Shown: positions 1,774 to 45,491, counted from the stretch's first letter. The stretch is DNA of 54,303 nt from an uncultured Gammaproteobacteria bacterium (GCA_964453605.1 CAYVOI010000002.1:1-54303); one strand, 5' to 3'. Translations and numbers: made by a program. Notes: generated by a model from the letters alone, not told the origin.

Positions 1774-3111
1774 TTACTGATGCTTCAAAAGCTCGGCTGC
1801 ATCTGTATTAGCCGCCGCTGCCCATTTCAATTTTCCTTCGCTCTCCCACTCAGCGGCAGTCCGTTCGCACATCTGGGAGGCCTTATCGGTTTTACCAGCT
1901 AAACGATAACAAATGCGAGCAGCATACAAATGATTATTGCCTTCAAAAATAGCCGCCCATGAAGTAAGTTCTTCATTGGTCAATAGTTTTGCAATTTTAT
2001 CATTGTCTAACATGCTCCCCATAGCAGAGAGGTCATCCTTGTTATCTCTTATAAACTCGTCTAGCATCTCACGAGCCTTAGCTTGGTTACCCACCTGCGT
2101 AAAATATTCAATGCTCTTTTCGGCATAACCTTGAACGAAGGGGGACTTTCTGTCCAATGTTGCATCCTTCCTATAGCTATTAGCATACTCTTGGCCACTC
2201 TTTAGCGCCAACTCTTTAACTTCTTCATCTTGTAACCCCAATTCCTTGGCAAAATCTAATTTTACCGCTGCTGGGTACACCCAACCCTTGGGGTTAACAT
2301 ACCCATTCAGGTAATCGTGGTACGCTTTATCGTCATCTGCTATACGACATAATGCTAAAATTGACCGTATGTTACTGTCATTTCTATTAGTAGTGAAAAC
2401 TTGTTCCTTAACTTTAGCTCTTAAAATATGTACTATTTTTTCTAGAAAATCACCTTCACCGTAAGACGCTCTTATGCTATTTACCCTTTCCAAGAGAGGG
2501 TCAGCACCATCAACTAGCTTAAAATATTCAAGCCATTGCTTTTGGGCAAGATCTAGTGAACCCAATATCTCTTGTGCCTCTGCTTCAAGTATAAGATCTT
2601 CGCCCCATATGGAAAATTCTTCTCCTAGATTTTTGGCTTTAAAATATTCCGCACCAGCTTGCCCTTTCGCTCTATCAGTGGCCATGGTGTCCTTTAATAC
2701 TAACAGGTCCTGGAATTGATCCATTGCATACTTTCGTGCTTCTTCATGATCGCCGTATTTTGCGCACAGTTCTGCGGCAATGGAACAGTTAGAATATTTT
2801 TCATAAATTTCTTCATCCGAATAACTGGCAATTTGCGCGGCGGTCGCTCGCAATATTTTTTTGGCCCTATCCTCTTGGTGGTTTTTTATGAAATATAAAA
2901 TAGCGGCCTCGCTATCTCCCATATTAATTCTCATGCCTTGTTCAATAGATGCCTCAATATTTTCTGCGTATCTCTTGTTTAGTTCAGCTGCCTTTTTTTC
3001 AAGCTGAGCGATAGAGGGGTGTTTTTCGCGCGCTTTATCTTCGGCCACTGCCATTTCTAAAGCTTCATTGGAACTACTTATACGCCCTTCATTAAAGTGT
3101 TCGACTTCCAT
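1774..3111 (-). CDS. Hypothetical 445-aa soluble protein, predicted all-helical and repeat-like (TPR-like impression only)
   Basis: Long uninterrupted ORF with non-repetitive, protein-like composition rich in E/K/A/L. Visibly more AT-rich than its neighbours (not computed). I recognise no family motif. Confidence 0.7.
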   Translation of the reverse strand: MEVEHFNEGRISSSNEALEMAVAEDKAREKHPSIAQLEKKAAELNKRYAENIEASIEQGMRINMGDSEAAILYFIKNHQEDRAKKILRATAAQIASYSDEEIYEKYSNCSIAAELCAKYGDHEEARKYAMDQFQDLLVLKDTMATDRAKGQAGAEYFKAKNLGEEFSIWGEDLILEAEAQEILGSLDLAQKQWLEYFKLVDGADPLLERVNSIRASYGEGDFLEKIVHILRAKVKEQVFTTNRNDSNIRSILALCRIADDDKAYHDYLNGYVNPKGWVYPAAVKLDFAKELGLQDEEVKELALKSGQEYANSYRKDATLDRKSPFVQGYAEKSIEYFTQVGNQAKAREMLDEFIRDNKDDLSAMGSMLDNDKIAKLLTNEELTSWAAIFEGNNHLYAARICYRLAGKTDKASQMCERTAAEWESEGKLKWAAAANTDAAELLKHQ

Positions 3112-3154
3112 AACGATTCTAAAATTTAATTATAAGGATGTATTCTATAGCCGC

Positions 3155-3183
3155 ATCCTACCCCCCCCCGAGGCCTTTGTCAA
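3155..3183 (-). promoter_or_regulatory. Candidate promoter of the 445-aa gene with a G9 tract in the spacer
   Basis: The minus strand has TTGACA (3178-3183), the 17-nt spacer AAGGCCTCGGGGGGGGG, and TAGGAT (3155-3160). The C9 run on the plus strand is at 3161-3169. Confidence 0.5.
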
Positions 3184-3241
3184 ATCAAAAATCAACACCA
3201 CAAGAGTAGTGTCGCGACCTACCTGTAAACTAGTGGGTGCC

Positions 3242-3277
3242 TTACGGATTTATGTCCAGCTGGACATAAATCCGTAA
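3242..3277. repeat. 36-bp perfect palindrome TTACGGATTTATGTCCAGCTGGACATAAATCCGTAA
   Basis: The sequence equals its own reverse complement. It lies 13 nt downstream of the stop of the 3291-3866 gene. Confidence 0.97.
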
Positions 3278-3290
3278 TCTGTATTATTCA

Positions 3291-3866
3291 TTATTTACCA
3301 TGGGGGAGGTGCAAAAAATGTTCGGCGTGGAAAACGTTCACCCAGGGCTTGAGCTTAGCTTGGGCGACAAATTGCGCTACGAGTTTGTAAACATCTGCCC
3401 TGCTCACCCACACACTCTGCTGCAGCTTGGCAAACCCGCCTTGTCGCAACAACCACCGGAACTGACGGCGAGCAATATTTTGGCTTTCGGGTATATCAAA
3501 AACTACGACCGTTGAAAGCGTGTCAGGTCGCCGTGGAGCTCGTTTGAGCTGTGTCACCAGCGTGGCAGCGCGCCCTTTAGCGGTAAGGGTTACGAGAAGC
3601 CGTTTGCCGATTTTTTGTGCAGTAATATAGCGTGCCTGTCGCAGTTGCGTGAGTGCCCGTTTAGCTGCTGTTTCCTTACTTAGGCGCTGGTATTCTTTAA
3701 CCAGGGTGTGCCCGCCGCGTAAATAGGTACCGCGATGATACTTAAGGTCGTAGAGCATGGTAGAGAAGTCCACCGCTGTCTGCCCAGTAGTAGCGAGCAG
3801 ATTGAGTAGCACCTTCGTTAGTGGTGGTCGTTGATTTCGCGTCATAGTATAACTGGATTGTATCAT
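3291..3866 (-). CDS. Putative PaaX-like regulator: N-terminal winged-helix plus C-terminal Cas2-fold-like domain (191 aa)
   Basis: The C-terminal segment TVVVFDIPESQNIARRQFRWLLRQGGFAKLQQSVWVS resembles the beta-alpha-beta core of Cas2/PaaX C-terminal domains. The N-terminal part resembles a wHTH. Assignment is by motif recollection only. Confidence 0.6.
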   Translation of the reverse strand: MIQSSYTMTRNQRPPLTKVLLNLLATTGQTAVDFSTMLYDLKYHRGTYLRGGHTLVKEYQRLSKETAAKRALTQLRQARYITAQKIGKRLLVTLTAKGRAATLVTQLKRAPRRPDTLSTVVVFDIPESQNIARRQFRWLLRQGGFAKLQQSVWVSRADVYKLVAQFVAQAKLKPWVNVFHAEHFLHLPHGK

Positions 3867-3869
3867 GCA

Positions 3870-3905
3870 TTACGGAAATATGTCCAGCTGGACATATTTC
3901 CGTAA
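3870..3905. repeat. 36-bp perfect palindrome TTACGGAAATATGTCCAGCTGGACATATTTCCGTAA
   Basis: The sequence equals its own reverse complement. It ends 3 nt upstream of the ATG at 3866. It differs from the 3242-3277 copy at 2 positions per arm, changed symmetrically. Confidence 0.97.
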
Positions 3906-3919
3906 TTGATCTAACAAGC

Positions 3920-4615
3920 TTACTTCACGCTACTGTTCCGTGTTCGCCACAGGGCAATGCGTTTATGGTGTCCACCAAGCAAAACCTTGGGTACACGGTA
4001 CTTGCGTTTGCTGACTACAAACACCTCGGGCCTGGTGTAGTGGGGGTGCTCTAAATAGGGAGTAGGGTGTAGGGAGTAGTCAGTAGAAAAAGATTCATTT
4101 TCAACTGACTCTTGCTTACCTACAACTCCAGGAATCATACGCGAAACCGCATCAATAATCACAGCTGCTGGCAGCTCGCCACCGGTGAGCACATAGGGGC
4201 CCACTGAAATTTTTTCATCGATAAAGTTTTCTACACGCGCATCCACACCTTCGTACCGCCCGCAAATAAAAATAAGTCGGTCATACTTCGCCAGCCGTTT
4301 GGCCACACCCTGCGTAAATTGTTTTCCATTCGCCGCCAATAACATTGTTCTCGTTTTCCCTACACCCTTCCCCCTACCCCCTGTACCCTTAAGCGCCCTG
4401 AGGGCGCGCCAAATCGGCTCCGCCTTTATCACCATACCCGCTCCCCCGCCGTACACTCGGTCGTCCACCTTGCGGTGCTTGTCGCGGCTCCATTTCCGCA
4501 AATCATGTGTTTGGATTTTAATTAATTTCTTTTCTTGCGCACGCTTTAAAATGCTCGTGCCAAAGTACGAATCGAGGGAACTTGGAAAAATGGAAATAAT
4601 GTCAAAACGTTTCAT
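3920..4615 (-). CDS. trmD: tRNA (guanine37-N1)-methyltransferase TrmD
   Basis: MKRFDIISIFP...YGGGAGMV...LTGGELPAAV motifs are present. The start is taken at the internal Met (4615) because the conserved N-terminus begins there. Confidence 0.9.
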   Translation of the reverse strand: MKRFDIISIFPSSLDSYFGTSILKRAQEKKLIKIQTHDLRKWSRDKHRKVDDRVYGGGAGMVIKAEPIWRALRALKGTGGRGKGVGKTRTMLLAANGKQFTQGVAKRLAKYDRLIFICGRYEGVDARVENFIDEKISVGPYVLTGGELPAAVIIDAVSRMIPGVVGKQESVENESFSTDYSLHPTPYLEHPHYTRPEVFVVSKRKYRVPKVLLGGHHKRIALWRTRNSSVK

Positions 4616-4651
4616 AACCAGTGATACGTTACCATAGGACAACACTTTATT

Positions 4652-4689
4652 CAACAAAAAGAGTCAGCTGCGGTTGTGCAACTGACTCT
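4652..4689 (-). terminator. Intrinsic terminator downstream of the 113-aa ORF
   Basis: On the minus strand, hairpin GAGTCAG...CTGACTC is followed by TTTTTG. Confidence 0.6.
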
Positions 4690-4806
4690 AATATTTTGCT
4701 TCTTGACTGCCTCACGACAGTTTTTAGTTTCAGGCGGGAAGCTGCCCACCTAACCAGGGGCGCCACTGTTTTTCAGGGCGCTTTATTTGGATTTTTCCCA
4801 GCGGGA

Positions 4807-5148
4807 TTAATACAAGGTAATCTCCTGCTCACCACCCCTCGTCATTACCCTCAGTTTGGAAGGTTCTATAACCTTCAATACTTTGAGTGGGTAATTTTCA
4901 CGCCCCTTTCCCAAATATACGTACTTCGTACCTTCGGGAAAACTAGGGGAGTAAACTTTGACATAGAAGTGTTCTGTTTTACCACTACCCTGCATCCGTG
5001 CGACATCCTCACCAACGAATATGATTAACCAATTGTTGATGACGTGATGGGTCAGTGCTTGGCGCGACTGATACGCATCACTGTTTGGAATCACACCGGT
5101 TTTAAAGCACCCGTTGACGAGATTTTTAATGTTCTTCAAGTATTCCAT
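4807..5148 (-). CDS. Hypothetical 113-aa protein
   Basis: ORF with its own terminator, divergent from the TrmB-like regulator across an extremely AT-rich spacer. No motif recognised. Confidence 0.55.
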   Translation of the reverse strand: MEYLKNIKNLVNGCFKTGVIPNSDAYQSRQALTHHVINNWLIIFVGEDVARMQGSGKTEHFYVKVYSPSFPEGTKYVYLGKGRENYPLKVLKVIEPSKLRVMTRGGEQEITLY

Positions 5149-5310
5149 GATTTCGCTCCTTATAATTGTGAAAGAAATTATTTTTGTTTAACAGGTTATA
5201 GTAGAACAGGTGCAGAAAAATGTCAATGGTTATAAATATTATCACTTAATATATTTATTAATATTTTGCTAAAATTAGACAAATTATGTATCTATATAGT
5301 GTCAAAAATA

Positions 5311-5339
5311 TTGACAATATTTTAAATATAAGATAGTAT
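5311..5339 (+). promoter_or_regulatory. Candidate promoter giving a leaderless mRNA for the TrmB-like regulator
   Basis: TTGACA (5311-5316), a 17-nt spacer and TAGTAT (5334-5339). The ATG at 5346 is only 6 nt after the -10 box. Confidence 0.5.
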
Positions 5340-5345
5340 TTACTT

Positions 5346-6071
5346 ATGAAAACCACTGAACAGCTGCAGGCTCTGGGGCTTACAAAAAACGAGATTTCCT
5401 TGTATTTAGCCACCTTGCAAATAGGTCCGGCGCCTATTTCTAAGCTAGCGGGGAAAGCGGGGGTTAAACGACCTACAGCCTACAACCACCTGGACGATCT
5501 TATAGTCAAAGGGTTGGTACACCAGCTGGTTAAGGGAAAACGCAAACTCTATGCCACCCACCCACCAGAGCAACTGCTAGACGTGCTGGAACAACGCAGG
5601 CAGCAGGTGGTAGCACAACTCCCTTACCTAAACTCGCTGTACCGTGCTACACCTAAGCAACCTCGCGTTACCTACTACGAGGGTAAAGCAGGCCTCAAGC
5701 GCGCCTATACAGAAATTTGGAGCACGCCGCTCACTATTTACACAGCTTTTTCTCCGGAACGCTACTTTCAGGTATTTACCCCCGAGGATAACGAGGAATT
5801 TTATAAACTACTCAAACAGCATGGTGGGCAGATTAACGATTTGGTTGAGCAATCAGCGAAAGGAGAAGAATTTATGAAACACAGCTATCGCAAGGGTTCG
5901 GGCCAGGCTAAGTTTCTACCAGCCTCGACCAGGCTCGCGGTGGACTTTCTAGCTACCACTAAAGTAGTGGCGCTGGTATCTCTGAGAAACCAGACTGCGA
6001 CGGTAATAGAAGACCCTGATATTGCCAGTGCCCATGTAGCTTTATTTAAGACTCTTTGGGACTCAATTTAG
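5346..6071 (+). CDS. TrmB-family (sugar-type) HTH transcriptional regulator
   Basis: The N-terminus LGLTKNEISLYLATLQIGPAPISKLAGKAGVKRPTAYNHLDDLIVKGLV is typical of the TrmB wHTH. Confidence 0.75.
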   Translation: MKTTEQLQALGLTKNEISLYLATLQIGPAPISKLAGKAGVKRPTAYNHLDDLIVKGLVHQLVKGKRKLYATHPPEQLLDVLEQRRQQVVAQLPYLNSLYRATPKQPRVTYYEGKAGLKRAYTEIWSTPLTIYTAFSPERYFQVFTPEDNEEFYKLLKQHGGQINDLVEQSAKGEEFMKHSYRKGSGQAKFLPASTRLAVDFLATTKVVALVSLRNQTATVIEDPDIASAHVALFKTLWDSI

Positions 6072-6085
6072 GGTGCTTAAAACAA

Positions 6086-6116
6086 AACCACCCCCGCGAA
6101 TTTGCGGGGGTGGTTT
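6086..6116. terminator. GC-rich hairpin terminator (AAACCACCCCCGC...GCGGGGGTGGTTT)
   Basis: 13-bp stem with A/T runs on both sides. It follows the regulator stop on the plus strand and the KH-tail fragment on the minus strand. Confidence 0.6.
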
Positions 6117-6126
6117 AAAATCAAGA

Positions 6127-6251
6127 CTATATCTTCAAATCGTCGACTATGGAGGTGTCGGCCATGGGGGCGCCCACGTCGCCGCCGTGCATAGCCTCGC
6201 GCTCTTCACGCGAGCGGCAGGAAAAATAGAGATAATATCAAAGCGTTTCAT
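6127..6251 (-). pseudogene. Chimeric gene fragment: the trmD 5' end (11 codons, 6220-6251) fused out of frame to a copy of the KH-protein 3' end (6127-6219)
   Basis: ATGAAACGCTTTGATATTATCTCTATTTTTCC matches the trmD start. The following ~93 nt are about 87% identical (hand count) to 9127-9219. Confidence 0.8.
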
Positions 6252-6269
6252 ACTATAACCATAAATCAA

Positions 6270-6292
6270 GGGGCCGCCTTTCGACAAGCCCC
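6270..6292 (-). repeat. Hairpin GGGGCTTGTCGAAAGGCGGCCCC, copy 1 of 2
   Basis: Near-identical to 8568-8590. Both sit between the stop of an upstream ORF and a trmD-head fragment. Confidence 0.85.
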
Positions 6293-6302
6293 TAAGAAAT
6301 TC

Positions 6303-6772
6303 TTATACCGAAACCCCACCTAGTTTGTTACCTGATATGTCGAGCACTAACACCTGTATGCCGTCAAATGAAACTCCACGCAGCACAAACAAATCAAACA
6401 TCGTCAACAGGGCAGTGGGCACAACCACTATGTACTTACCACCATTAAATTTAGATTTAGAGAGCAATCTTTGGGCCTCGGCCAGCCCCAGGCCGAGGCT
6501 GGTGGTTTGCGTAAACTCACATTCAGGCGACAAACCCAGCTCCTGCCGACCGGGTATGGCCGAGGTGTCGCCCAAACGGTAAACCCAAAATACTCCTTTA
6601 AGGCTGCGGCTGTCACGCAAAACTTCCTTCGCTTTCTGCACGGCCTCAGCCGTTTCCATACCCCGCTGGTCAAACACCAGCGCGCCCGACGTGGCCTTGG
6701 CAACAGAGTGAAGGTTACTGTGGCCACCAATATTACCAGAAAAAGGCTCGCTACTATAGCTAAGCGTTTCAT
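6303..6772 (-). pseudogene. Exported or membrane-anchored ~155-aa protein gene interrupted by a frameshift (or assembly indel)
   Basis: AGGAGA-N6-ATG at 6772 opens a signal-peptide-like MKRLAIVASLFLVILVATVTF. That frame then becomes Arg-rich junk. The protein-like frame (6303-6677, open upstream to the start) has no start codon of its own. Confidence 0.55.
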
Positions 6773-6948
6773 GGTATTTCTCCTGTTTTGGTGTTGAATC
6801 TAGATTTATGAATGAACGATTAGCGACATCTTACGGCATGGCGGGTGATTAAGTCAAGCCAGCGTGAACGCTGTACCAACTGGAGCACGCTTTGTGAGCG
6901 GCGTTCTAGGTTAAAGCTATGGGTTACGGCACAGCGGCGCGGCTGGCT

Positions 6949-6978
6949 TTGACAACCGCACCTCAGGTTTGCTAAGGT
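6949..6978 (+). promoter_or_regulatory. Candidate glnA promoter
   Basis: TTGACA (6949-6954), an 18-nt spacer and TAAGGT (6973-6978). Confidence 0.4.
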
Positions 6979-7039
6979 ACAGCAACTATAAAACCGATAA
7001 TTCAGCTCATTCCCATACACCATATAAGGAGTAGTAGTC

Positions 7040-8422
7040 ATGCAAAAAAAGCTCACTCGCCTGCTCAAAAACGCGCAGGCTGTTCTGCTTACCTTTACCG
7101 ATCCCTTAGGAAAACGGCAAGAGGTGACCACCGTTCCACGGGAGATTGATGAAAACTCCCTCCGCAGCGGCATAGGGTTTGATGGCTCGTCCATCAAGCT
7201 CTTTAGCCCAATCCAAGAGTCGGACATGCTCCTGGTGCCGGACGAGGCCACCGCGTTCATGGACCCGTTCTGTGCCGTGCCCACCGTCAGCCTGACCTGC
7301 GACATTCGCGACCCGGTTACGGGTAAGTGGTTCACGCGCGACCCGCGCTACGTAGCGCGGCAGGCGCAGGCCGAACTCACCAAGAGTGGCCTGGCCGATA
7401 CCATGCTGGTCGGGCCTGAGCCTGAGTTCTTTATCTTCGATGGCGCTCGCTACCAACAGAACGCCCAGAGTGCACACTACGAGGTAGACGCAGAGGAGGC
7501 AGTCTGGAACTCCGACACCCAGGGCAACCGAGGACACAACATTCGGCACAAAGAAGGCTACGTGCCTGCCCGGCCAGAGGACAAACTTGGTGACATTCGC
7601 ACCGAAATGTTGCTGACGTTAGAAAAGCTCGGCATTCAGACTGAAAAGCACCACCACGAGGTAGCCACCGCCGGGCAAGCAGAAATTGATCTGGTGCGCC
7701 TGCCGCTGCTCGCCATGGCCGATGCCACCACAACTCTGAAGTACGTGGTCAAGAACGTGGCTGCCAAACATGGTAAAACGGCCACGTTCATGGCCAAACC
7801 TATCTTTGGGGACAATGGCAACGGCATGCACGTGCACCAGAGCTTGTGGAAAGGCGGCAAGCCGCAGTTTGCGGGCAAGAGGTACGCCGGCCTTTCAGAT
7901 ATGGCACTGTGGTACATCGGCGGGCTGCTGAAGCACGCCCGGGCACTCTCAGCGTTCTGTGCACCAACGGTCAACAGCTACAAGCGCCTGGTGCCAGGGT
8001 TTGAAGCGCCAACTAACCTGGTGTATTCGGGCCGGAATCGGTCGGCGGCTATCCGCATACCGCTGTACAGCAATTCACCCAAAGCCAAGCGGGTTGAATT
8101 TCGCTGCCCCGATCCTACCGCCAATCCGTACCTGGCCTTTGCCGCCATGCTCATGGCTGGACTCGATGGTATTCGCGAGGAAACCGACCCGGGCAAGGCG
8201 GTAGATGAGAACATCTACGAGAGTAAACTCAAGCTGCCGCAACTGCCAGGGAGCCTTAGTGAGGCGCTAGATGCGCTCGAAGATGACCACTTCTTCTTGG
8301 GGCTGGGTAGGGTATTCACGGAGGATCTGGTGCAGGCGTTTATCGCCCACAAGCGGCAAGAGGTAGCCGAACACAATATGCGCCCCACGCCGTACGAGTT
8401 CTGTACGACCTACGACGCGTAA
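7040..8422 (+). CDS. glnA: Glutamine synthetase, type I
   Basis: 460 aa with GS-I hallmarks (FDGSSI, PEPEFF, KPIFGDNGNGMH.H.S, NSYKRLVPG.EAP, R.P). Confidence 0.93.
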   Translation: MQKKLTRLLKNAQAVLLTFTDPLGKRQEVTTVPREIDENSLRSGIGFDGSSIKLFSPIQESDMLLVPDEATAFMDPFCAVPTVSLTCDIRDPVTGKWFTRDPRYVARQAQAELTKSGLADTMLVGPEPEFFIFDGARYQQNAQSAHYEVDAEEAVWNSDTQGNRGHNIRHKEGYVPARPEDKLGDIRTEMLLTLEKLGIQTEKHHHEVATAGQAEIDLVRLPLLAMADATTTLKYVVKNVAAKHGKTATFMAKPIFGDNGNGMHVHQSLWKGGKPQFAGKRYAGLSDMALWYIGGLLKHARALSAFCAPTVNSYKRLVPGFEAPTNLVYSGRNRSAAIRIPLYSNSPKAKRVEFRCPDPTANPYLAFAAMLMAGLDGIREETDPGKAVDENIYESKLKLPQLPGSLSEALDALEDDHFFLGLGRVFTEDLVQAFIAHKRQEVAEHNMRPTPYEFCTTYDA

Positions 8423-8437
8423 TCCTATTCAAACTAT

Positions 8438-8469
8438 GATGGAAGCCTGGCCAGCTTCCATCTTTTTTT
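8438..8469 (+). terminator. Intrinsic terminator of glnA
   Basis: Hairpin GATGGAAGC-7nt-GCTTCCATC followed by T7. Confidence 0.85.
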
Positions 8470-8548
8470 ACATACGCTTCAAAATGCTCGTGCCGAAGTA
8501 CGAGTCGAGCGGTGTGGAAAAAATAGCAATAATATCGAAGCGTTTCAT
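8468..8548 (-). pseudogene. trmD 5' fragment: an intact 26-codon ORF, MKRFDIIAIFSTPLDSYFGTSILKRM
   Basis: About 78% nt identity (hand count) to the first 78 nt of trmD (4538-4615). It ends at a stop inside the glnA terminator T-run. Confidence 0.75.
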
Positions 8549-8567
8549 AAACCTAACAATAATGAAA

Positions 8568-8590
8568 GGGGCCGCCGTTCGACAAGCCCC
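8568..8590 (-). repeat. Hairpin GGGGCTTGTCGAACGGCGGCCCC, copy 2 of 2
   Basis: Differs from 6270-6292 at one position and sits in the same position relative to a trmD-head fragment. Confidence 0.85.
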
Positions 8591-8600
8591 TCACCACAAA

Positions 8601-8978
8601 TTACTTTGGGTACCATCTATTGTGCGCCTCCAGAATCGCTTTTTCGTCCCAATGCCCAAATAACCAATTTTGTGCCAGCATTATACCCAACACAGTTACC
8701 GGTAAGTCCGAGCCGATTATAGCTATTGGTAAAACTCCCCAGTAAAGGCTCAAGTCCACGATGTGCAAGCCCAGCATTATCGCTACTCCAATCAACGCTG
8801 ACCAGAAAAACGCAAAAGTAAGTAGTGAAGGGCTACGACGGTGACCCCAAATGATAATGGCTGCGGCGAGATCGTTATTTTTTAATGCTTTAGAGCGAAA
8901 CAACCAGAGCTGGAGCCTAAATGCTATGGGTATCAAAACAACGGTGGTCACAATAGGTAAAACTATCGTTATGTTCAT
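8601..8978 (-). CDS. Hypothetical 125-aa integral membrane protein
   Basis: About four hydrophobic segments, an AAGGAG SD 5 nt upstream, and its own TTGACA-type promoter after the KH terminator. Confidence 0.65.
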   Translation of the reverse strand: MNITIVLPIVTTVVLIPIAFRLQLWLFRSKALKNNDLAAAIIIWGHRRSPSLLTFAFFWSALIGVAIMLGLHIVDLSLYWGVLPIAIIGSDLPVTVLGIMLAQNWLFGHWDEKAILEAHNRWYPK

Positions 8979-9086
8979 AACTTCTCCTTATTATTGAAAT
9001 TGGAAGGAATATAGTGTTAGATAATTGATTCTTTTTTTACCTCTACTGAAAAAGTTACTCCTAATATACCTCAGTGTCAACACAAA

Positions 9087-9113
9087 ATCACCCCGCCACC
9101 TCGGCGGGGTGAT
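9087..9113 (-). terminator. Terminator after the KH-protein gene
   Basis: On the minus strand, AATCACCCCGCC-GAGG-GGCGGGGTGATT is followed by TTGTGTT. Confidence 0.65.
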
Positions 9114-9126
9114 TATACAATCGAGC

Positions 9127-9486
9127 TTAAATCTTCAGGTCGTCGACTATAGCGGTGTCGGCCATGGAGGCGCCCATGTCGCCACCGTGCATAGCTTCGC
9201 GCTCTTCGCGGGAGCGGCGTGGGCCACGCGAACCCTCGGGTTCGTAAATTTTCAGGTTTACACGGGCGTTGTTCTTGGCGCCTACTACCCTGAGCAGGGT
9301 ACGAAGGCTGCGGGCAGTTTGGCCCTGGCGGCCGATTATCTGGCCCATGTCTTCAGGAGACACGTGGAGCGTAATGAGCACGCCCATTTCGTCTACCGTG
9401 CGTTCGGTCTTCACGGCTTCCGGGTGATCGACCAGCGCCTTTACGACGAAGTCGATGAACTGCTGGTCCTGTGGCATGTCGGACAT
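9127..9486 (-). CDS. KH-domain RNA-binding protein (YlqC/KhpA-like) with a charged C-terminal tail
   Basis: Contains the GQIIGRQGQTARSLRTLL (GXXG KH) motif. It lies directly downstream of rpsP, as in the conserved operon. Confidence 0.85.
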   Translation of the reverse strand: MSDMPQDQQFIDFVVKALVDHPEAVKTERTVDEMGVLITLHVSPEDMGQIIGRQGQTARSLRTLLRVVGAKNNARVNLKIYEPEGSRGPRRSREEREAMHGGDMGASMADTAIVDDLKI

Positions 9487-9529
9487 GTGTGTGCAAGTTA
9501 GGGTTAAAAGTACAACTAAATAACTTAAG

Positions 9530-9904
9530 TCAAGCTGCTGGCGCCTGGTCGGAAGATTCAGCGGACGCCTTGGCGGGAGCCTCTTCCTTCTTGGTGGCTG
9601 GTGCAGCTGCCGGAGCCTCAGTTGCGTCTTTCTTCTTGGCCTTCCACACGCGGAGCTTTTCAGCCTTAATCAGCTTTTGGTCTACCAAAAGGTTATGAAC
9701 CGAGGCGCTGGTTTGCGCGCCGTGGTCCAGCCAATGCTTCACGCGGTCAGCCTTAAGCACCACCTCCCACGGGTTCTTGTGGGGGTTCACGTGCCCCAAC
9801 AGCTCAAGGTAGTCGCCGTGGGTGTCTTTAGTTTTCTCAGAAACTATCAGGCGGAAGTACGCGTGCTTTTTCTTGCCGGTACGTGCCAGGCGGATGGTCA
9901 ACAT
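9530..9904 (-). CDS. rpsP: 30S ribosomal protein S16 with an Ala/Lys/Glu-rich C-terminal extension
   Basis: MLTIRLARTGKKKHAYFRLIV... is a canonical bS16 N-terminus. Confidence 0.93.
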   Translation of the reverse strand: MLTIRLARTGKKKHAYFRLIVSEKTKDTHGDYLELLGHVNPHKNPWEVVLKADRVKHWLDHGAQTSASVHNLLVDQKLIKAEKLRVWKAKKKDATEAPAAAPATKKEEAPAKASAESSDQAPAA

Positions 9905-9937
9905 GGGCTTTCCGAACAGTTAATTCAAGTAAAAATA

Positions 9938-9966
9938 ATAGTAGCCAATTATCCCTAGGGTGTCAA
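9938..9966 (-). promoter_or_regulatory. Candidate rpsP promoter
   Basis: The minus strand has TTGACA (9961-9966), a 17-nt spacer and TACTAT (9938-9943). Confidence 0.5.
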
Positions 9967-9975
9967 GCCTCTGGC

Positions 9976-12585
9976 TCAGGCCTTCTTAGCTGACCGCGAT
10001 TTGCCGGCTATATCATTCGCCTCGTCAAACTTCACGGAGAGAAGCCTCGAAACGCCGTCTTCACCGATGGTAACACCATAGAGAATAGCAGCACGTTTCA
10101 TGGTAGCGCGGTTGTGGGTGATGGTGATGAACTGCGTTTCGCCCATTAGGGAATCTAAGATGGCGGCAAACCGCTCACTGTTCGCTTCATCGAGTGCGGC
10201 GTCTACCTCGTCCAAAACTACAAAGGGCGAAGGGTTGTTGGAGATGATAGCGCAGATGAGCGCAATGGAGGTCAGCGCCCGCTCCCCGCCCGACAGCGCG
10301 GTTATGCTCTCTAGTTTCTTGCCCGCTGGTTTCGCGCTTATTTCCACACCCGAAAACAAGGATGCCCGGAGCCGCTCTTGAGCGATAAACTTTTCTTTGG
10401 CGCTTGGTACAGCTGCCTCGTCCGCTTCATCATCATCCTCGCCCCCCTCACCAAGTTCGGGCTCAGCTTCGGCTTTAGGTTCTTCCTTCTGCAGCACCAG
10501 CTGAGCACGGCCGCCTGAGAACAGCACCTGGAAGTACTTTGCGAACTTTTCGTTGATAGCTTTAAAGCTCACCAAAAACTTTTTCTCAATGGTTTGGTCC
10601 AAGTCGCGGATAATGCTCTCTAATGAAGCAATGGCGGTCTCAAGGTCGGCAAGTTGTGTGGTCAGAAAGTCGTAGCGGGTTTTGGTCTGCTGGTACTCGG
10701 TTACAACTTCGGGCTCTATGCCGCCCGTAAGCTCCAGCTGGTGCTTGAGCTTCTGAAGCTCGAGAGCAGTTGTGCCTTCATCGATATTCGCTACCGTTCC
10801 GGGCTCTTTAATTTCGTGTGCCAGCTCAGCTGGAATTTCTTGTGCCATTTCGCGCTCTAGGTCCTCAAGTTTAGTTTCTAATCTCGTGAGCTCTAGGCTC
10901 AGCTCATGCGTAACCTGCTCCAGCCTGCGTTCAGCAGTGGTGGCAGCTGTGAGTTCACGTTGCACGCTAAAGAACTCAGCCTTACGGGTTTCAGATTTAC
11001 TATGGAACGCAGCTAACTCCTGTTCTACAGTGGCAAGCTCTTGCTCCACAACGGTTATGCTCTGTGCCATTTCCGGCAAACGCGAACTCGCCTTCCCTTG
11101 AGGCGCACTGCCCAGAGAGTGCTCTACCTTACTAATAGCATCAGCCACTGTCAGCTCTCGCTCCTGCACATTTGTGAGTTCACGTTCCAAAGTTTTAGCG
11201 TTCGCCTGCAAAGCTGCCAGTTCCCCCACCAAAGCATCGCGCGCCGCGAGTGACTGGCTAAGCTCGTCGGCCGAAAGCTTGCCCTTGCGCTCTAAACGCT
11301 TCAGGAGGGCGCGCAGGCGCTCTTCCACTGCGCTCACGCGTTGCACGAGTATGTTCACCTCCGACAAATTTTTGAGAGCAGCGAGCGCCTGCCTAAGGTC
11401 AGCGTGCTCCTCTGCTAGCGCCGCCACTTCCTGAGCAACCCAAGCCTCACCACTCTGGTTCGCCAAACGGTCAAACTCTGCTACCGCCTCAGCCTGGACT
11501 TTTACTTTCCGCTCAAGCTCTTGGGCCTCTGCCTGCTGCTGCCGTTCCAGAGCCACACTGCGCTCACTAAGCTGCTTAAGCTCGGTTTTAAGTTCTGCCA
11601 AACGCTGCTTCAGCCAGGCCACCTCACCCTCACCGCGCTTCAGGTGTCCAACCTGTTCCTCAGCCTCCGCTACGGCCTGCTCTTTAAGAAGTTGGCTCAA
11701 TTTGCCGCGGAGTGCTGTTTGCTTACCTTGGAGCTCGTGCCAACCGCCCGCCGAGCTGTCGGCGCCCTCCAGCGCTTTGAGCTTCGCTTCCAAACCCCGG
11801 GCTGCCTTAGCTTGTTCGCTGAGGTCAGCCTGCTCGTCGGCAACTTTCGCAGCCAGCTCCCGGCGTTTACCCTCTAGCCCGTGGTAGCGGTAGCGGTAGT
11901 ACTGCTTCTGCAACTCCCGAAGTTCCTTCTCTAGCTCTTCACGGCGCTCCAGGCGCTTCACCGACCGAGTTAAGGCCCGAAGCCGTGGCTCGATTTCTTG
12001 AATGAGCGCCTGAGCCTGCTCCAGGTTGTCGTAGGTGGCAGTCAGCTTCCCTATAGCCTGCTCGCGCTTTAGCTGGTACTGCTTTACACCCGTGGCCTCT
12101 TCAAAAAACTCTTTGCGCTCGGCGGGGCTCGCTAGCAAAATCGAATCTATCATGCCTTGGCCAATGACGCTGTAGGTTTTTTGACCAAAGTTTGAACGCG
12201 CCAACAAGAGCTGAATGTCCTGGAGCCTGACAGGCGACTGGTTTAGCAAGTACTCGCTCTGCCCATCCCTAAACACCCGGCGCGTGATCACAATTTCGGC
12301 GAACTCTATCGGGGCCTGGCCATCCTCATTGTTGAGGTAGAGCGACACCTCCGCCATGCCGAGGCGACTCTTAAGATCGCTCCCAGCAAAAATAACGTCC
12401 TCGGCCCGTTTGCCACGCAGGAGCTTTATGGACTGTTCACCCAAAACCCACCGAATAGCATCAGCAATGTTGCTCTTGCCTGAACCATTAGGCCCAACCA
12501 CCGCCGTCAGCTGGCGGTTGAACTCGAGCCTGGTTTTGGTGGCAAACGACTTAAAGCCTTGAATGTCGAGCTTCTGGAGGTACAT
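9976..12585 (-). CDS. smc: SMC-family chromosome segregation ATPase, short form (869 aa)
   Basis: N-terminal Walker A (GPNGSGKSNIADAIRWVLGEQS). C-terminal signature and Walker B (LSGGERALTSIAL...VLDEVDAALD). The middle is a long coiled-coil. Confidence 0.88.
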   Translation of the reverse strand: MYLQKLDIQGFKSFATKTRLEFNRQLTAVVGPNGSGKSNIADAIRWVLGEQSIKLLRGKRAEDVIFAGSDLKSRLGMAEVSLYLNNEDGQAPIEFAEIVITRRVFRDGQSEYLLNQSPVRLQDIQLLLARSNFGQKTYSVIGQGMIDSILLASPAERKEFFEEATGVKQYQLKREQAIGKLTATYDNLEQAQALIQEIEPRLRALTRSVKRLERREELEKELRELQKQYYRYRYHGLEGKRRELAAKVADEQADLSEQAKAARGLEAKLKALEGADSSAGGWHELQGKQTALRGKLSQLLKEQAVAEAEEQVGHLKRGEGEVAWLKQRLAELKTELKQLSERSVALERQQQAEAQELERKVKVQAEAVAEFDRLANQSGEAWVAQEVAALAEEHADLRQALAALKNLSEVNILVQRVSAVEERLRALLKRLERKGKLSADELSQSLAARDALVGELAALQANAKTLERELTNVQERELTVADAISKVEHSLGSAPQGKASSRLPEMAQSITVVEQELATVEQELAAFHSKSETRKAEFFSVQRELTAATTAERRLEQVTHELSLELTRLETKLEDLEREMAQEIPAELAHEIKEPGTVANIDEGTTALELQKLKHQLELTGGIEPEVVTEYQQTKTRYDFLTTQLADLETAIASLESIIRDLDQTIEKKFLVSFKAINEKFAKYFQVLFSGGRAQLVLQKEEPKAEAEPELGEGGEDDDEADEAAVPSAKEKFIAQERLRASLFSGVEISAKPAGKKLESITALSGGERALTSIALICAIISNNPSPFVVLDEVDAALDEANSERFAAILDSLMGETQFITITHNRATMKRAAILYGVTIGEDGVSRLLSVKFDEANDIAGKSRSAKKA

Positions 12586-45149: not shown

Positions 45150-45491
45150 ATGACTACCGAAGCTTCAACCACCCGTTTTGATAACATTCAACCCGGCCAG
45201 CTGGTACGAGTGCACCAGCGCATTAAGGAGCAAAACAGCAAGGGTGAGGACAAAGAGCGTATCCAAATTTTTGAAGGTACCGTACTCTCCCGTCATGGTG
45301 GTAGGGGTACAAACGCCACCATCACGGTACGTAAAGTTTCCGACGGCATTGGCGTGGAACGCATCTTCCCCCTTGAACTCCCCACCCTCAGCGAGATTGA
45401 AGTGGTAAAAACCTTCAAGACCAACCGCGCTAAACTCTACCACCTCAAGGGCTACCAAAAGAAGCTCAAAGAGGTGGTGGCCAAAGCTTAA
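45150..45491 (+). CDS. rplS: 50S ribosomal protein L19
   Basis: G..V.V........ER.Q.FEG.V......G...T.TVRK.S.G.GVER.FPL canonical bL19. Confidence 0.93.
   Translation: MTTEASTTRFDNIQPGQLVRVHQRIKEQNSKGEDKERIQIFEGTVLSRHGGRGTNATITVRKVSDGIGVERIFPLELPTLSEIEVVKTFKTNRAKLYHLKGYQKKLKEVVAKA

Follow-up and report, generated by a model that had tools for sequence, protein, structure and literature searches.

Duplicated ends of trmD and a KH-domain gene bracket stacked accessory genes at a family-wide hot spot in a Patescibacteria genome

In the genome of a member of the Patescibacteria (candidate phyla radiation, CPR; 933,652 bases, 99.84% complete), trmD sits 4.5 kb beyond the KhpA-type KH-domain gene (hereafter KH), and the gap between the two is occupied by accessory genes lying among partial copies of both flanking genes. 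The locus lies on a contig of 54,303 nt (GCA_964453605.1, CAYVOI010000002.1:1-54303), the whole of which we call the window. Comparison with relatives shows that the KH-trmD interval is a family-wide hot spot at which accessory genes are gained, lost and swapped, and the gap in the window reads best, judging from its sequence, as three truncated versions of this interval placed one after another. We consider it probable, at roughly 0.6, that recombination with the DNA of close relatives stacked these versions, either by one-sided homologous recombination combined with illegitimate joining (homology-facilitated illegitimate recombination, HFIR) or by Campbell-type integration. How ultrasmall, host-dependent CPR bacteria gain genes is poorly understood, and classical mobile elements are few in them; at this locus gene gain can be read with unusual clarity, with three alternative versions of one intergenic island side by side.

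Results

Repeated gene ends and their junction

A first-pass annotation, made from the sequence alone, had listed three trmD 5' ends and two KH 3' ends at this locus. When 3800-9600 was compared by BLASTN with the whole genome and repeats were searched for within the window, every one of these repeats was recovered and was statistically significant. The KH tail is repeated together with its terminator (6079-6218 versus 9079-9218, 141 columns, 81.6% identity, E = 2e-30), the last 93 coding nt being 86% identical between the copies. The start of trmD recurs once as a 90-nt copy (4528-4617 versus 8461-8550, 80%, E = 8e-16) and once as an 11-codon copy (6220-6252 versus 4584-4616, 33 nt, 87.9%, E = 7e-4), and these two copies align with each other together with the hairpin that precedes them (6222-6293 versus 8519-8591, 73 columns, 83.6%, E = 1e-13). 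BLASTN against the whole genome found no extra copy of the KH-tail or trmD-head repeats outside the locus. The 23-nt hairpin that had been described ahead of both trmD-head copies occurs at exactly two genomic sites when up to three mismatches are allowed, 6270-6292 and 8568-8590, with folding energies of -16.3 and -17.1 kcal/mol for the two copies. The two KH-type terminators form strong folds (z about -6), and their stems differ by paired changes, so that the stem is kept.

The head-to-tail junction is also as first described: the trmD head and the KH tail meet at 6219/6220, out of frame by one base. Where codon 11 of trmD adjoins the last 93 nt of KH, microhomology amounts to at most ~2 nt, and the join, to go by these letters, is illegitimate. 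The two units delimited by it have the KH tail with its terminator (140 nt) and the trmD head in common, and the cargo that intervenes is unrelated. We rejected a transposon target-site duplication as the source of the repeats, which are 33-140 nt long, 80-88% identical and variable in length; the repeat search of the window found no terminal inverted repeats flanking the cargo blocks, and no transposase domain was present in the 36 open reading frames (ORFs) described below.

Three layers and their counterparts in relatives

Followed in the direction of the operon genes, which are all on the minus strand, the gap divides into three layers. Layer 1 consists of KH, its terminator, a gene for a 125-aa membrane protein, a 23-nt hairpin and a copy of the first ~90 nt of trmD. 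Layer 2 holds glnA on the opposite strand, a frameshifted exported-protein gene, the second 23-nt hairpin and the first 33 nt (11 codons) of trmD. Layer 3 begins with the last 93 nt (31 codons) of KH, to which that head is joined, and continues with the second KH-type terminator, a TrmB-like gene on the opposite strand, an ORF of 113 aa (orf113), a 110-nt structured RNA-like element, a terminator and the complete trmD. Apart from the KH tail and terminator, the hairpin and the trmD head, the layers share nothing.

We compared this arrangement with a family set of 20 other species genomes (G labels), none of the same genus, and with fetched contigs (L labels), including metagenome contigs, the best of which carries a trmD 75% identical to that of the window. 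The order of layer 1 (KH, membrane gene, hairpin, 26-codon trmD head) is found identically on L033; a 52%-identical homologue of the 125-aa membrane protein directly follows KH in G016, and a weaker N-terminal match is encoded on L033. For layer 2, an exported-protein gene and hairpin stand before the intact trmD in G005 and G020 and before a head fragment on L035. The second frame of the window's exported-protein gene is homologous to the L035 protein encoded upstream of hairpin and head (E = 6e-13) and also matches G005, and the context "hairpin + tttattgttag + ATG" is common to the window copies and to the true trmD of G005 and G020. For layer 3, a 53%-identical TrmB homologue is encoded upstream of trmD in G014, and G012 is collinear with the window over 200 nt (4602-4798, 80%), from the RNA-like element through the terminator to the start of trmD. 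The product of orf113 had no match in Pfam, NCBIfam, PADLOC or Atlas and no similarity to the ORF at the equivalent position in G014, and domain searches gave no family match for the 125-aa membrane protein.

Variable cargo between KH and trmD across the family

Eleven family relatives have both genes on one fetched contig. In five of them KH and trmD are adjacent, 78-130 nt apart (G001, G006, G007, G009, G013), and in the other six 1.2-2.6 kb of unlike cargo lies between them (G005, G012, G015, G016, G017, G020); five further family contigs break off in cargo beside KH or trmD (G008, G010, G011, G014, G019). The cargo of relatives includes NTase/HEPN pairs, Gp49-HTH (HigBA-like) pairs, AbiEii, HATPase-DUF4325, pilin-like and TerC-like proteins, small membrane or exported proteins, regulators and orphans. 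On more distant metagenome contigs, KH and trmD are mostly adjacent. The hot spot that the first-pass annotation had proposed, with synteny in related genomes as the means of checking it, is thus borne out: the variable cargo of relatives lies at exactly the KH-trmD gap, and it is accompanied by similar spare gene ends.

Spare trmD heads of 17, 28, 26 and 27 codons are present in G015, G016, L033 and L035, respectively (L037 is a contig nearly identical to that of G016), and spare KH tails are present in G011 (54 nt, 92.6%) and G031 (33 nt). Other gene ends are duplicated in the same region. In G016 (contig L015) the 3' end of trmD is copied ~650 nt downstream (5137-5218 / 5784-5865, 78%), and rpsP stands between the two copies of a 75-nt repeat (918-992 / 1549-1622, 89%). 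In G011 (contig L028) a Gp49-HTH (HigBA-like) pair lies between 43-nt direct repeats (4833-4875 / 5610-5652, 93%) that correspond to the end of the HATPase-DUF4325 gene before it, and the whole block is in turn flanked by the KH-tail repeats (3702-3755 / 5686-5739, 92.6%); we take these repeats to be nested scars of the same kind as those of the window. Comparison of the window's genome with itself revealed other gene-end duplicates on C1, another contig of this genome, for example at 534223/534782, 698156/698639 and 467664/468944. The HigBA, NTase/HEPN, HATPase and SDR-like cargo of relatives has no homologue anywhere in the window's genome, so no remnant of those cassettes is left here.

As a separate observation, palindromic hairpins of 36-52 nt, 88-97% alike, are dispersed on C1 (for example 143673-143724, 652146-652197, 731316-731358 and 732567-732606).

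Differences between copies and genes

When each trmD head fragment was compared with the trmD of its own genome, the differences over six pairs numbered 16, 6 and 52 at codon positions 1, 2 and 3, and the corresponding counts for the KH tail fragment against the KH gene of the window were 6, 0 and 9. All five differences between the 11-codon head and the window's trmD are at third positions. In comparisons of head fragments with one another, the differences were distributed 31/13/68 by codon position, a pattern like that between functional genes (22/14/63% at the three positions). Such a third-position bias would be expected if the copies had diverged as working genes in different genomes, and less so of a decayed local duplicate, although we do not regard it as decisive.

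The head fragments end at nt 33, 51, ~80, ~85-88, ~88 and ~90 of trmD, and the ends in G016 and L035 belong to one collinear unit: the fragment-HigBA-trmD unit of the two gives a single 1047-nt alignment at 71.7% identity, the trmD body alone being 70.8% identical.

Recombinases and uptake genes

Pfam searches of 36 ORFs, 10 from the window and 26 from the loci of 13 relatives, found no recombinase domain of the integrase, transposase or resolvase kind; the ORFs of L033, L035, L036 and L038 were read by eye only. The two tyrosine recombinases of the genome are Xer-like, scoring 70 and 58 bits with the integron-integrase model TIGR02249 against a cut-off of 265 and higher with Xer models. Four large serine recombinase genes lie elsewhere, on C1 (424318-424764, 856788-857225, 158209-158640 and 245095-245532, in open frames of 515-610 aa), which suggests integrated elements elsewhere on the chromosome. 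Large serine recombinases are not known to create long repeats. The genome also encodes ComEC (PF03772, 1.9e-52), DprA (PF02481, 1.3e-80) and RecA (PF00154, 1.2e-138).

Reproducibility of the gene order

One 10,785-nt Logan contig, built by another assembler in each of two runs, covers 3877-10500 with 0 differences and at even depth (17.7 and 12.8 in the two runs), so the order of the locus, for which the first-pass annotation had kept an assembly artefact in view, is not one. The two runs belong to a single study, possibly as the source samples themselves, which makes this a matter of reproducibility and not of independent sampling. A single contig of depth 2 in run X1 links 9165 back to 6171 through 8 additional letters. 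The KH tail of a relative, a circle or a duplication could each underlie it, and the signal is too weak to be used. Two other candidate joints (4048>9321 and 4451>9714) were set aside, having 21 letters on the short side and probably coming from other organisms, as were numerous joints within glnA, which come from the glnA of other organisms.

A three-hairpin RNA-like element ahead of trmD

The 110-nt element (4804..4694) has three hairpins, one with a GNRA-type loop. Eight copies were found in six genomes: those in the window and on C1 (442675-442782, minus strand), one each in G012 and G004, two in G017, and two in further metagenome-assembled genomes of the Patescibacteria type. A motif scan of 185,579 species genomes gave 10 pattern matches, six of which scored above 60 bits with the model, two of these six being new. 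Across the eight copies, 88.6% of the cells are paired, as against 31-55% when the partners are slid, and nine of 23 pairs changed on both sides; none of 500 shuffles reached the covariation score, which was obtained on an alignment fitted to the model. An independent six-row MAFFT alignment gave 88.5% paired and seven pairs changed on both sides. Rfam has no match to the element, a scan of 2500-10500 at E <= 1 returning only two chance-level Leu_leader matches, both on the terminator.

The element begins at most 13 nt past the stop codon of the upstream ORF in seven of the eight copies, and a hairpin follows 10-25 nt downstream in all eight (with a clear T-run in seven, by eye). The upstream ORF is a different unannotated gene in six copies, and one G017 copy (G017a) shares an SDR-like one with G012. 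Because the element and the trmD flank are common to the window and G012 while the ORF ahead of them is not, the element, like the 23-nt hairpin, marks a boundary at which cargo is swapped. It may be an element of the 3' untranslated region, a small RNA or a portable patch of homology.

Glutamine synthetase

The glnA of layer 2, to judge by its model score, is a complete, bona fide type I glutamine synthetase. It was found in none of the 20 family relatives and in two of 20 other genomes of the same class, and its best database matches are at most 61% identical, the named ones being from non-CPR groups (Bacteroidota, Ignavibacteriae, Gemmatimonadales and Verrucomicrobiota). It is likely to be an old lateral acquisition that added nitrogen assimilation to a reduced genome.

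Gene context

The features of the locus are collected in Table 1. The first-pass annotation had seen the operon as broken up, with rplS 40 kb away and rimM absent from the window. We place rplS at 45156-45476, and the RimM domain (PF01782) was not found anywhere in the genome, beyond the window as well as in it. The break-up is lineage-wide: relatives too have smc-rpsP-KH-trmD without rimM. The last 55 bases of the window contig (54249-54303) are identical to the first 55 of C1 (1-55), so the two contigs probably adjoin in the genome.

Just downstream of trmD, two near-identical perfect palindromes of 36-38 nt, ~88% alike (3242-3277 and 3869-3906), flank a gene for a 191-aa PaaX_M/Cas2-like winged-helix protein (3291-3866); operators, terminators acting in both directions and cassette edges are candidate roles for them.

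Table 1 Features of the KH-trmD locus, in the direction of the operon genes, with the copies of the RNA-like element on fetched contigs
Feature	Coordinates	Strand	Basis or remark
smc	9976..12585	-	869-aa ORF; conserved core gene, upstream flank of the hot spot; adjoins rpsP-KH in relatives
rpsP (ribosomal protein S16)	9530..9904	-	ORF; syntenic in relatives
Intact KH-domain gene (KhpA-like)	9127..9486	-	Pfam PF13083, 3.6e-22
Intrinsic terminator of KH	9086..9114	-	13-pair stem and T-run; -23.5 kcal/mol, z -5.8
125-aa membrane protein, layer-1 cargo	8601..8978	-	no family match; homologues in G016, L033
23-nt hairpin, copy 1; terminator of the upstream cargo gene	8568..8590	-	fold; genome pattern search
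trmD head fragment, ~90 nt; holds 26-codon mini-ORF 8468-8548	8461..8550	-	80% to 4528-4617
glnA terminator; abuts end of trmD head fragment	8438..8462	+	-13.9 kcal/mol
glnA, type I glutamine synthetase	7040..8422	+	TIGR00653, 597 bits versus cut-off 429
Frameshifted exported-protein gene, layer-2 cargo	6303..6772	-	two overlapping frames
23-nt hairpin, copy 2	6270..6292	-	fold; genome pattern search
trmD head fragment, 11 codons	6220..6252	-	87.9% to 4584-4616
KH tail fragment, last 31 codons including stop	6127..6219	-	86% to 9127-9219; joined out of frame to 11-codon trmD head
Terminator hairpin copied along with KH tail; also ends convergent TrmB-like gene	6085..6116	.	-26.7 kcal/mol
TrmB-like HTH regulator, layer-3 cargo	5346..6071	+	PF01978, 1.9e-12
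Orphan 113-aa ORF (orf113), layer-3 cargo	4807..5148	-	no family match
Three-hairpin RNA-like element	4694..4804	-	model R1, 125 bits; starts 2 nt past orf113 stop
Intrinsic terminator after RNA-like element, ~45 nt ahead of trmD start	4660..4689	-	-20.2 kcal/mol, z -6.7
Intact trmD	3920..4615	-	PF01746, 5e-50
RNA-like element, copies on fetched contigs	L139 593-703; L137 546-658; L134 555-657; L138 546-655; L135 593-700; L133 546-661		

Discussion

Our comparison places the partial gene copies of the window at a site where relatives carry other cargo with similar scars, and the process that we favour needs only ordinary recombination. DNA from a close relative with a different version of the KH-trmD interval would enter the cell, presumably by transformation, and would pair with trmD on one side, while its other end would be joined illegitimately, as in HFIR. 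A circularised piece that integrates by a single crossover would be an equivalent route with the same product. By either route, the incoming version would come to lie next to the resident one, which would be kept, and a spare gene end would be left. Two such events would account for the window, the two trmD heads and the KH tail being their leftovers; the direction and order of the events, and a foreign rather than in-situ origin of the copies, are what we infer. Later recombination between the direct repeats could delete cargo, which would explain its patchy distribution. Natural competence has been reported in Saccharibacteria (PMC10187176).

Several observations weigh against this reading. 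The 26-codon head has 79% identity with the window's own trmD, against no more than 74% with another trmD; for the KH tail the figures are 86% with its own gene and no more than 62% with another (ungapped comparison). Because each window fragment is thus nearest to the window's own gene, duplication in situ fits equally well on similarity, and any donor would have to be a close relative absent from the collections, in a nearest-neighbour comparison for which the fragments are too short to be resolved. Neither a same-genus relative nor an identifiable donor of the copies was found in the collections searched. Sliding identity against six relatives revealed no clear mosaic breakpoint inside trmD, only a general conservation profile. 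Gene conversion between fragment and intact gene could also give the third-position bias: in G016 and L035 each fragment shares 86% identity with the gene of its own genome, against 77% with the other fragment, although the whole fragment-HigBA-trmD unit is collinear. The G016/L035 unit is as diverged as trmD itself, so fragments can stay free of indels over long times, a surprising persistence for useless DNA where the genome is streamlined. Four of the head ends fall within ~10 nt of one another, and the genome does encode the four large serine recombinases.

The strongest competitor is tandem duplication in situ, in which unequal or illegitimate recombination between sister chromosomes would have duplicated the interval from KH tail to trmD head, with divergence and cargo replacement afterwards. 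A trmD head joined to a KH tail is exactly the topology of a tandem-duplication junction, each fragment is closest to the window's own gene, both 23-nt hairpins share lineage-specific letters that are absent from the hairpins of relatives, and fragment and own gene share a CTC Leu codon seen elsewhere only in L033. However, the units are without any shared cargo, each matches the arrangement of a different relative, and second-position differences are few (6 of 74 over the head pairs and 0 of 15 in the KH tail), below the expectation for neutral decay, although gene conversion could mimic this. We therefore regard duplication in situ as rather unlikely, if a serious alternative. The proposal of the first-pass annotation, repeated duplication and insertion at a hot spot, stands as regards the hot spot and the topology resembling a tandem duplication; simple tandem duplication fits poorly, given that the units share no cargo, match different relatives and differ mainly at third positions.

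A more speculative and somewhat less probable idea is that the fragments serve as portable homology arms. In these Patescibacteria, which are integrase-poor and would be competent, gene-end fragments, together with the structured sequences that follow stop codons (the 23-nt hairpin and the 110-nt element), would make the KH-trmD gap a RecA-based, integron-like landing pad, at which lineages would exchange cassettes by transformation and the fragments would be kept open and free of indels by selection or gene conversion.

Integrase-driven capture, the other proposal of the first-pass annotation, is unlikely. It would require an attachment site overlapping the 5' end of trmD and a recombinase that acts in trans or has since been lost, one more trmD head being left per event, as when integrative elements accrete in tandem. 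In keeping with it, head fragments set out from the start codon, the ends of four among the six falling at nt 80-90; toxin-antitoxin modules give the cargo an island-like character; and the genome has genes for four large serine recombinases at other loci. Genomes bearing fragments are moreover scattered on the trmD tree, where four changes are needed and at least two are forced by well-supported branches. Against this, the 36 ORFs scanned contain no recombinase domain, the remaining fragments stop at nt 33 and nt 51, spare tails of KH and of trmD exist besides the heads, and a common motif at the cargo edges was not seen by eye. The boundary at the start codon follows simply from differing upstream neighbours, and the boundary in G016 and L035, which lies inside one collinear 1047-nt alignment, reflects a single event, inherited or transferred, rather than repeated targeting. 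Inspection by eye of the nt 80-90 boundary for a dif-like (Xer) site showed no convincing inverted arms. On L033 a HigA remnant is fused upstream of trmD, which suggests that cargo was later replaced behind an older scar. Site-specific capture at a site overlapping the trmD start, as first proposed, is therefore not supported.

That the fragments are retained for a function, the mini-ORF or its hairpin and start region acting as a leader or expression signal for cargo, or as homology arms, seems to us very improbable. Four head fragments in different genomes do keep an open, indel-free frame with conserved residues and the gene-like 31/13/68 pattern, and the G016/L035 fragment dates back to the split between their trmD genes. 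But the mini-ORF of the window has lost the otherwise invariant Pro11 and has 5 of 26 residues changed, the G015 fragment is clearly decayed (12 unique states over all codon positions), and the mini-ORFs end in differing, unrelated tails. Finally, collapsed or mis-joined repeats in the assembly can be dismissed almost entirely as the origin of the gene order, since repeats merely 80-88% identical are not collapsible and the 10,785-nt contig spans the locus identically in two runs.

The locus does not point to new mobile-element machinery; it fits best as a clear example of CPR gene gain by ordinary recombination. One of the stacked versions brought a complete glutamine synthetase that was not found in the 20 family relatives searched. 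The record at this locus supports a simple, testable route of gene gain, transformation followed by one-sided or single-crossover recombination, and laboratory transformation is now feasible for some Saccharibacteria.

Several known systems resemble the locus in part. Like integron cassettes (IntI, attI, attC), the cargo here consists of small accessory genes, mostly poor in promoters, gathered in a stack at a single site, with structured sequences right after stop codons; unlike in integrons, there is no IntI here, the hairpins are ordinary terminators and the cargo genes do not all point the same way. Some integrative elements target the end of a gene and supply a replacement end, as SXT does at the 5' end of prfC and e14 and phage 21 do at icd. 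They too leave a displaced, diverged copy of a gene end beside the inserted DNA while the gene stays intact, but the window locus is without an integrase, its crossover point seems not to be constant, its cargo is only one to three genes, and it has duplicates of 5' as well as 3' ends, from different genes.

HFIR during natural transformation is described for Acinetobacter, Streptococcus pneumoniae and Pseudomonas stutzeri (PMC3240628). The likeness is that one end is anchored by homology (here, trmD) and the other is joined illegitimately with ~2 nt shared, that no dedicated recombinase is involved, and that uptake and RecA genes are present. The window differs in being a case read from a natural genome, with an anchor and direction that are reconstructed, in its additive product, and in at least two events at one site. 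Finally, at chromosomal hot spots between core genes, recombination in the flanks drives the turnover of accessory genes, and many such spots are without mobility genes. The KH-trmD interval shares with them its conserved flanks (smc-rpsP-KH on one side and trmD on the other) and its variable content across relatives. It is distinct in lying in a ~0.9-Mb Patescibacteria genome, in keeping partial copies of both flanking genes and in having several versions stacked upon one another.

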